DNA from: Escherichia phage PhiR70_1
Reading direction: 5' to 3' (one strand)
DNA: 48,757 nucleotides
Sequence record: PV340577
Part shown: positions 8,568 to 9,497 of the stretch, piece after piece
How positions within the stretch are numbered: the stretch's first letter is position 1
Layout of the letters: each line of letters begins with the position of its first letter
The notes under the pieces: generated by a model
What the model was told of the DNA's origin: nothing
What the model saw: only the letters and a program-made list of their open reading frames with translations
The model's database searches: none
Program-made: the position numbers and the translations under genes

Positions 8568-9497
8568 ATGGCAAACACTGCTGAGATATTCAATTTTCCA
8601 GTGCCGGATGTGGCACAAAAGGAGCGGCGCGTGGCAGATCACGACGATGGTTATACGCGCATTGCAAATGAGTTGCTGGAAGCTGTGATGCTGGCCGGAT
8701 TAACACAGCACCAGCTTCTGGTCTTCCTGGCTGTCATGCGCAAAACATATGGCTTTAATAAAAGACTGGATTGGGTGAGCAACGAGCAACTTTCCGAATT
8801 GACCGGGATATTGCCGCACAAGTGTTCTGCTGCAAAAAGCGTTCTGGTAAAGCGTGGGATTCTTATTCAGAGCGGGCGGAATATCGGCATTAATAATGTG
8901 GTCAGTGAATGGTCAACATTACCCGAATCAGGTAAGAAAAATAAAGTTTACCTGAAAGAGGTAAATTTACCTGAATCAGGTAAAAAAAGTTTACCCAAAT
9001 CAGGTAAAGGCGTTTACCCGAATCAGGTAAACACAAAAGACAAACTAACAAAAGACAATATAAAACCTTTTTCGTCCGAGAATTCTGGCGAATCCTCTGA
9101 CCAACCAGAAAACGATCTTCCTGTGGTGAAACCGGATGCTGCAATTCAGAGCGGCAGCAAGTGGGGGACAGCAGAAGACCTGACCGCCGCAGAGTGGATG
9201 TTTGACATGGTGAAGACCATCGCGCCATCAGCCAGAAAACCGAATTTTGCAGGGTGGGCTAACGATATCCGCCTGATGCGTGAACGTGACGGACGTAACC
9301 ACCGCGACATGTGCGTGCTGTTCCGCTGGGCATGCCAGGACAACTTCTGGTCCGGTAACGTGCTAAGTCCGGCCAAACTCCGCGACAAGTGGACCCAGCT
9401 CGAAATCAACCGAAACAAGCAACAGGCTGGCGTGACAGCCGGCAAACCAAAACTCGACCTGACGAACACTGACTGGATTTACGGGGTGGAGCTATGA
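8568..9497 (+). CDS. O: Replication initiator O: non-lambda N-terminal DNA-binding domain, lambda-type C-terminal domain
   Basis: C-terminal SGSKWGTAEDLTAAEWMFDMVKTIAPSARKPNFAGWANDIRLMRERDG...TDWIYGVEL matches lambda O; N-terminus differs; iterons inside the gene; likely ATG at 8568 with GGAGG Shine-Dalgarno (track ORF starts at 8478). Confidence 0.85.
   Translation: MANTAEIFNFPVPDVAQKERRVADHDDGYTRIANELLEAVMLAGLTQHQLLVFLAVMRKTYGFNKRLDWVSNEQLSELTGILPHKCSAAKSVLVKRGILIQSGRNIGINNVVSEWSTLPESGKKNKVYLKEVNLPESGKKSLPKSGKGVYPNQVNTKDKLTKDNIKPFSSENSGESSDQPENDLPVVKPDAAIQSGSKWGTAEDLTAAEWMFDMVKTIAPSARKPNFAGWANDIRLMRERDGRNHRDMCVLFRWACQDNFWSGNVLSPAKLRDKWTQLEINRNKQQAGVTAGKPKLDLTNTDWIYGVEL
8919..9075. repeat. 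ori: Replication origin: iteron array plus AT-rich tract inside O
   Basis: Four to five copies of TTACC(C/T)(G/A)AATCAGGTAA at 8919-8935, 8947-8964 (degenerate), 8967-8983, 8991-9007 and 9014-9030, followed by an A-rich tract; classic ori-lambda architecture. Confidence 0.8.

Follow-up and report, generated by a model that had tools for sequence, protein, structure and literature searches.

The initiator protein O of phage lambda is described, in the part of PMC6022878 that deals with it, as an N-terminal DNA-binding domain and a C-terminal P-binding domain joined by a flexible linker, and lambda-phi80 and lambda-82 hybrids of it are reported there. According to the same passages, crossovers within the O gene yield functional initiators whose N and C parts come from different phages, and the modularity of lambdoid O proteins goes back to Furth & Yates 1978 and Wickner & Zahn 1986 (both via PMC6022878). 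The lambda iterons are bound by dimers of O (Tsurimoto & Matsubara 1981, as cited in a section of PMC8022706; also a passage of PMC7466680). A two-domain O and its intragenic hybrids have been textbook knowledge since 1978, and a mosaic O is ordinary and already known.

Here, we analysed gene O of the prophage PhiR70_1 (sequence record PV340577) within the whole stretch of 48,757 nucleotides, hereafter the window. The O/origin module of this lambdoid prophage is very probably built from two exchangeable parts, which came together through an ancestral exchange within the A-rich element and linker (table 1).

Gene O and its setting in the prophage

The frame ending at 9497 has two candidate starts in the list of open reading frames, 8478 and 8568. 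We favoured the start at 8568 because it is preceded by GGAGG 5 nt upstream and because the resulting N-terminus, MANTAEIFNF, aligns with MTNTAKILNF of lambda and also with the O proteins of GZ7 and SEN34. The motif at this start, ATTATGGCAAA, is conserved and common to the O genes of the window, lambda and GZ7. The 30 extra residues obtained from the 8478 start correspond to nothing in the other O proteins of the comparison. In phage 4A7 (gp51) and in RefSeq ('replication protein'), O is annotated from the ATG at 8478 as a protein of 339 aa, overlapping the ydaT stop.

Pfam placed Phage_rep_O (PF04492) at residues 21-115 of O (E 1.5e-33, 115.6 bits against a cut-off of 28.7), and this score above the curated cut-off makes O a member of the lambdoid O-type initiators. 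The Pfam search of the C half found no domain, Phage_rep_O lying in the N part only. Residues 118-200 are polar and of low complexity, 76% of them being K/E/S/P/Q/G/N/D/T. Further on, O has a C-terminal domain homologous to lambda O residues ~160-299, with a Phage_lambda_P gene adjacent, as in the lambda-type pairing. The start of P overlaps the stop of O (ATGA), and the P protein is identical to that of lambda at 226 of 233 positions. A search of PDB sequences with O found no solved relative, and scanning the whole window with Rfam at gathering thresholds gave no match. The domain limits were taken from the alignment and the lambda literature; a single-sequence AlphaFold2 model of O (mean pLDDT 40, pTM 0.26) was not used for this.

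Table 1. Coordinates of the O-P module in the window.
Feature	Position	Strand	Evidence or remark
Gene O, replication initiator, 309 aa	8568-9497	+	ORF list, Pfam Phage_rep_O, GGAGG, conserved start
Coding region of the N-terminal, presumed origin-binding domain (aa 1-117), non-lambda type	8568-8918	+	Protein identities, dS
Iteron 1, TTACCCGAATCAGGTAA	8919-8935
Iteron 2, TTACCTGAAAGAGGTAA	8948-8964
Iteron 3, TTACCTGAATCAGGTAA	8967-8983		Perfect 17-bp palindrome, matches both strands
Iteron 4, TTACCCAAATCAGGTAA	8991-9007
Iteron 5, TTACCCGAATCAGGTAA	9014-9030
A-rich element (ACAAAAGACAAACTAACAAAAGACAATAT...), presumed DNA-unwinding region	9031-9062		Also encodes part of the interdomain linker
Mosaic junction, codon ~165	9060-9062		Left GZ7/4A7-like, right lambda-like
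Coding region of the remaining linker and of the lambda-type C-terminal (P-binding) domain	9063-9494	+	138/141 aa identical to lambda
Gene P, lambda-type helicase loader	9494-10195	+	Pfam Phage_lambda_P (PF06992), E 2e-60

The window as a whole looks like a complete prophage at att-lambda, running from att core to att core. Its first 1389 positions are 97.8% identical to lambda 27738-29126 (attP right arm and int), the int gene encoding 356 aa on the minus strand (75-1145), and its last 217 bases (48541-48757) correspond at 86.7% to the attP left arm of lambda, ending ...CTTTTTTATACTAACTTG. At the position of lambda rex (5239-6761, minus strand) there are three co-oriented genes, namely a 136-aa ORF, an antitoxin of the MqsA family (Pfam E 2e-17) and a gene to which RefSeq gives the name of a SecB-like chaperone in a 99%-identical prophage; this trio may be a toxin-antitoxin-chaperone module. 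A repressor with an S24 peptidase domain (6881-7609, minus strand) adjoins a YdaS-like (77 aa) and a YdaT-like (181 aa) gene of the Rac-prophage type, which occupy the cro and cII positions (7678-8481); phage records label the YdaT-like gene 'cII-like'. A promoter-like TTGAAT-17-CATAAT with an upstream TG reads on the minus strand from 8593 to 8565, its -10 hexamer reading as the conserved ATTATG of the O start on the opposite strand, and a stable hairpin is predicted on the same strand at 8497-8531 (fold z = -2.9). Together they are placed like pO and the oop antisense RNA between cII and O in lambda. To the right, 10192-18482 is an undeleted version of the early-right region of the cryptic K-12 prophage DLP12, with ren, emrE, ylcJ, ybcK (a large serine recombinase), ybcL, ybcM, ybcN and ninE, and further ybcO, rusA, ylcG, quuD and the ompC/nmpC porin gene.

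Iterons and the A-rich element

The initial annotation had reported 17-bp iterons at 8919-9030, leaving their number unstated. They are real and number five, each a palindrome of the pattern TTACCYRAAWSAGGTAA, with starts 29, 19, 24 and 23 nt apart. Within the 48.7-kb window the pattern has no copy outside these five, and 100 shuffles of the sequence yielded 0 matches. The A-rich stretch comes directly after iteron 5, and the GC fraction is 0.34-0.39 in 100-nt windows starting at 8900-9000. O is accordingly one of the initiators whose gene carries the elements of an origin, a cluster of palindromic iterons and then an A-rich region.

The arms of these iterons, TTACC-N7-GGTAA, differ from TCCCTC-N6-GAGGGA of lambda, and the N-domain next to them is also of a type other than lambda's, as had been noted initially. 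Because its iterons are of the TTACCYRAAWSAGGTAA and not the ATCCCTCAAAACGAGGGA type, and its N-domain is 48-49% identical, O falls outside the ori-lambda specificity group (lambda, 21, 933W and SfI). These differences suggest a different binding specificity, and we presume the iterons to be the cognate sites of the O N-domain. More generally, we infer binding specificity, origin function and the mechanism of recombination from the sequence.

The spacing of iterons 2-5, 19/24/23, resembles the 20/24/23 of lambda, which also occurs in SfI, PhiR12_1, P22 and HK97, and this spacing is common to lambda/SfI, PhiR12_1, P22 and HK97 although their repeat sequences differ. Relative to GZ7, the iteron/A-rich segment of the window had an identity of 0.85 at third codon positions and the N-domain one of 0.56; judging by these positions, the segment is constrained as DNA. 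The palindromes, the lambda-like phasing and the conserved third codon positions argue for a role of the repeats at the DNA level. Alternatively, the repeats could be nothing but a repeated peptide (LPESGKK-like) in a flexible linker, with no protein bound to them and the origin elsewhere. The iterons do encode a repetitive and polar linker, its composition over residues 118-200 being that given above, yet a peptide repeat does not account for units that are each a DNA palindrome, perfect in copy 3, nor for their third codon positions. It is further at odds with a 19/24/23 phasing that mirrors the experimentally bound lambda iterons and is found again, over unrelated repeats, in P22, HK97 and PhiR12_1, with the A-rich element following directly as in lambda, and with the lack of another copy in the window. 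We consider this explanation very unlikely and treat the repeats as iterons.

The A-rich element is itself widely conserved. Among the 11 lambdoid O genes compared, 10 have the motif ACAAAAGAC...ACAAAAGA starting 2 nt past the last iteron, and for ACAAAAGA...ACAAAAGA the count and the starting point are the same; the motif is absent from phi80, the remaining one. These 10 origins come from phages of E. coli, Salmonella and Klebsiella and differ in iteron sequence, in N-domain type and in the type of C-domain and partner.

The junction inside O

Compared with lambda, the two halves of O are discordant. Left of ~9060, DNA identity is ~53%, and the N-domain (aa 1-117; nucleotide identity 0.53) has a dN of 0.52 with synonymous sites saturated. 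Right of ~9060, DNA identity is 95%, and the C part (aa 166-309; nucleotide identity 0.95) has a dN of 0.018 and a dS of 0.18. In 30-nt windows, identity to lambda was 0.30-0.73 over 8568-9066, with one gap-dominated window of 0.00 at 8928-8946, and, with the exception of one short dip within P, 0.90-1.00 from 9067 to where P ends. The C-terminal domain of O is thus of lambda type and matches the lambda-type P next door, at 98% and 97% amino acid identity, in agreement with the initial proposal.

That proposal had also placed a recombination junction somewhere inside O and suggested an alignment with the O proteins of other lambdoid phages as a way to find it. We mapped the junction on a three-way alignment of the window, GZ7 and lambda. 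The maximum chi-square, 311.9, fell between informative sites 9059 and 9063 and was reached in 0 of 1000 permutations. Among the informative sites, GZ7-like ones outnumber lambda-like ones by 171 to 33 on the left of the break; on the right, 249 are lambda-like and 8 GZ7-like, which is partly trivial in that GZ7 is unalignable there. The switch between 9059 and 9063 stands nevertheless, because it is seen independently in base-level alignments, where the window equals GZ7 through ...ACAAAAGACAATA and lambda from TTCGTCCGAGAATTC on. The junction thus follows the last iteron by ~30 bp and sits where the A-rich element ends on the right, in what the lambda literature describes as the flexible linker between the DNA-binding and P-binding domains (PMC6022878, in its treatment of O). 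In the suggested alignment, lambda and phage 21, the O protein of which is identical to that of lambda, match the C half only, and phi80 matches neither half.

Could both halves instead descend without recombination from a lambda-like ancestor, the N-domain having changed faster, e.g. under diversifying selection for origin specificity? Common ancestry of the domain is not in doubt, as it can be aligned with that of lambda throughout, at 49% amino acid identity. Selection on the protein, however, cannot produce an N half with saturated synonymous sites beside a C half with a dS of 0.18. The abruptness of the switch, within 4 nt, and GZ7, which has an N half 83% identical but a non-homologous C half and a loader of a different family, also contradict this history, which is therefore extremely improbable.

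Exchange of the same parts is visible across the comparison set of 11 phages (table 2). The identity of the C-domain follows that of the neighbouring gene (98/97, 79/80, 49/48, none/none), while the identity of the N-domain follows the iteron type and not the partner gene. The N-domain and iterons travel together, as in GZ7, which has both with an unrelated C half and a different neighbour.

Table 2. O proteins, partner genes and iterons of lambdoid phages. Identities are to the N-domain, C-domain and P of the window; 'unrelated' means that only a short, low-scoring local alignment was obtained.
Phage	N-domain	C-domain	Partner	Iterons
4A7	97%	98%	P 97%	Same five iterons
Klebsiella GZ7	83%	Unrelated	IstB/DnaC-type ATPase	Same five iterons, same spacing
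Salmonella SEN34	60%	79%	P 80%	TTAGC-N7-GCTAA
lambda	49%	98%	P 97%	Lambda-type, four
SfI	49%	99%	P 99%	Lambda-type, four
933W	48%	99%	P 97%	Lambda-type, six
PhiR12_1	39%	98%	P 98%	TGTCAC-N7-GTGACA
phi80	39%	49%	P-family 48%	Other type
P22	59%	Unrelated	DnaB-type helicase	TTTACC-N5-GGTAAA
HK97	48%	Unrelated	DnaB-type helicase	TTAGC-type

In the two-part module that we propose, the left part, from 8568 to ~9060, comprises the presumed origin-binding N-domain, its five presumed cognate iterons and the presumed A-rich unwinding element, and the right part, from ~9063 to 10195, comprises the lambda-type C-domain of O and the lambda-type P. By analogy with lambda, dimers of O would attach by their N-domain to the five iterons, forming an O-some that destabilises or strains the adjacent A-rich DNA; the C-domain would then recruit the P-DnaB complex, from which host chaperones would release DnaB. 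An ancestral homologous exchange in the A-rich element or linker would have left O mosaic relative to lambda. With the junction there, the initiator stays with its iterons and the tail of the initiator stays with the helicase loader, and the A-rich/linker segment would be the only place where a crossover keeps both cognate pairs intact. Since the A-rich motif is common to 10 of 11 origins whatever their N or C type, it could, speculatively, supply the homology for such exchanges. That the element serves, besides unwinding, as a common homology patch for the repeated exchange of specificity and helicase-recruitment modules is a tentative idea that we consider rather doubtful; if true, the element would be an actual instance of the 'linker' sequences that modular phage evolution has been postulated to involve.

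Distribution of the allele and comparison with known systems

The full 930 nt of O are 97.0-98.2% identical in 14 phage records, e.g. PhiR30_1, Lambda_4C10, 4A7, 1W, 3W and Perceval. The allele thus occurs in sequenced phage isolates, and several of the records name the host used for propagation, e.g. E. coli C or K-12 MG1655. In E. coli chromosomes, identity was at least 98.9% in 25 of 25 among the matches listed, 12 of them at 99.9%. The N-domain/iteron half was found at a coverage of at least 80% in 2287 of 5426 complete E. coli genomes (42%), and lambda's own N half in 1325 complete E. coli genomes. Among O/ori types, TTACC-N7-GGTAA is the most frequent in complete E. coli genomes; our literature search found no experimental description of an origin of this type. 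One E. coli genome has O in an intact DLP12-type prophage at tRNA-Arg, with the gene order YdaS/YdaT-like, O, P, ren, emrE, ylcJ, ybcK ... rusA, quuD, over a stretch 99.4% identical to window 2550-18482. The O of the window is a member of this 4A7/DLP12-type allele of Bievrevirus and E. coli prophages.

The initial annotation held that uniform identity to a single known O along the entire length would speak against a mosaic. Such identity does exist, to 4A7 and its relatives (97-98% over 930 nt), but relative to lambda O is a mosaic all the same. The contrast with lambda, and nothing beyond it, might suggest a recent junction peculiar to the PhiR70_1 prophage and a noteworthy new hybrid. The 14 phage records, the frequency of the N/iteron half and the 25 chromosomal matches refute a recent hybrid unique to PhiR70_1, as the allele is widespread in phages and E. 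coli genomes, and we give this reading practically no weight. The junction in O is an inherited allele, old, widespread and already annotated, and not an event of PhiR70_1.

A further reading takes the O-P module for the decayed remnant of a cryptic prophage, no longer functional, given that the genes to its right (ren-emrE-ybcK...) are the ones present in the defective K-12 prophage DLP12. We regard decay as highly improbable: O and P are both intact, with the overlap seen in lambda, the window extends from one att core to the other and its lambda-type int is intact too, and the same O-P allele is carried by the sequenced isolates 4A7, 1W, 3W, Perceval and the PhiR series.

Two other phages touch on the allele. 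In the record of phage D2 (OM475427, 2411-3432), the same O allele is split into two annotated CDS. Its match to the window is limited to O nt 1-246 and a second segment in the C half, with 77% coverage; a frameshift, a replacement within the gene or faulty sequencing could be the cause. Phage 82 is said to have five repeats and a P-compatible O, which we mention as a lead only. DNA matches to the N/iteron half included no phage 82 ori record. The nin region of phage 82 (X92588), up to orf45, is 96% identical to window 14482-16118, and its Q gene differs.

The practical value of these results lies in annotation: an intact att-lambda prophage has a DLP12/4A7-type origin joined to lambda-type P recruitment. 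The prophage would be expected to replicate independently of an ori-lambda-specific O and to need the host factors of lambda, DnaB and DnaK/J/GrpE. The conserved phasing of the iterons and the invariant A-rich element at the module boundary are usable for studying swaps of replication modules.

Among known systems, lambda and phage 21 share with the window the gene order, an origin inside O, iterons followed by an A-rich element and a like phasing. Lambda has four iterons where the window has five of another sequence, and cII upstream of O where the window has the YdaT-like gene. Phage 4A7 (Bievrevirus) and its relatives Lambda_4C10, 1W, 3W, Perceval and PhiR30_1 have the same O allele over its full length at 97-98% nucleotide identity, with point differences only, the same five iterons and the same genes around it (YdaS/YdaT, P, ren, emrE and ybcK), their O being annotated as the 339-aa frame. 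GZ7 and related Klebsiella phages share the N-domain type (~80% at the nucleotide level), the five iterons, their spacing and the A-rich element, but their C-terminal half is unrelated and an IstB/DnaC-type ATPase takes the place of P. Gene 18 of P22 (gp18) and O of HK97 have a Phage_rep_O N-domain like that of the window, an iteron spacing of 20/24/23 and then the ACAAAAGACAATA element, and the P22 iterons share the TTACC/GGTAA arms; both phages, however, have an unrelated C half and, as partner, a DnaB-type helicase (gene 12) and not a loader. As the P22 spacer is 5 nt against 7 nt in the window, and the C half and partner differ as well, the O of the window does not belong to the P22 gene 18 origin type. 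Finally, the hybrid O proteins of the literature were selected in the laboratory, whereas the O of the window is a natural allele.
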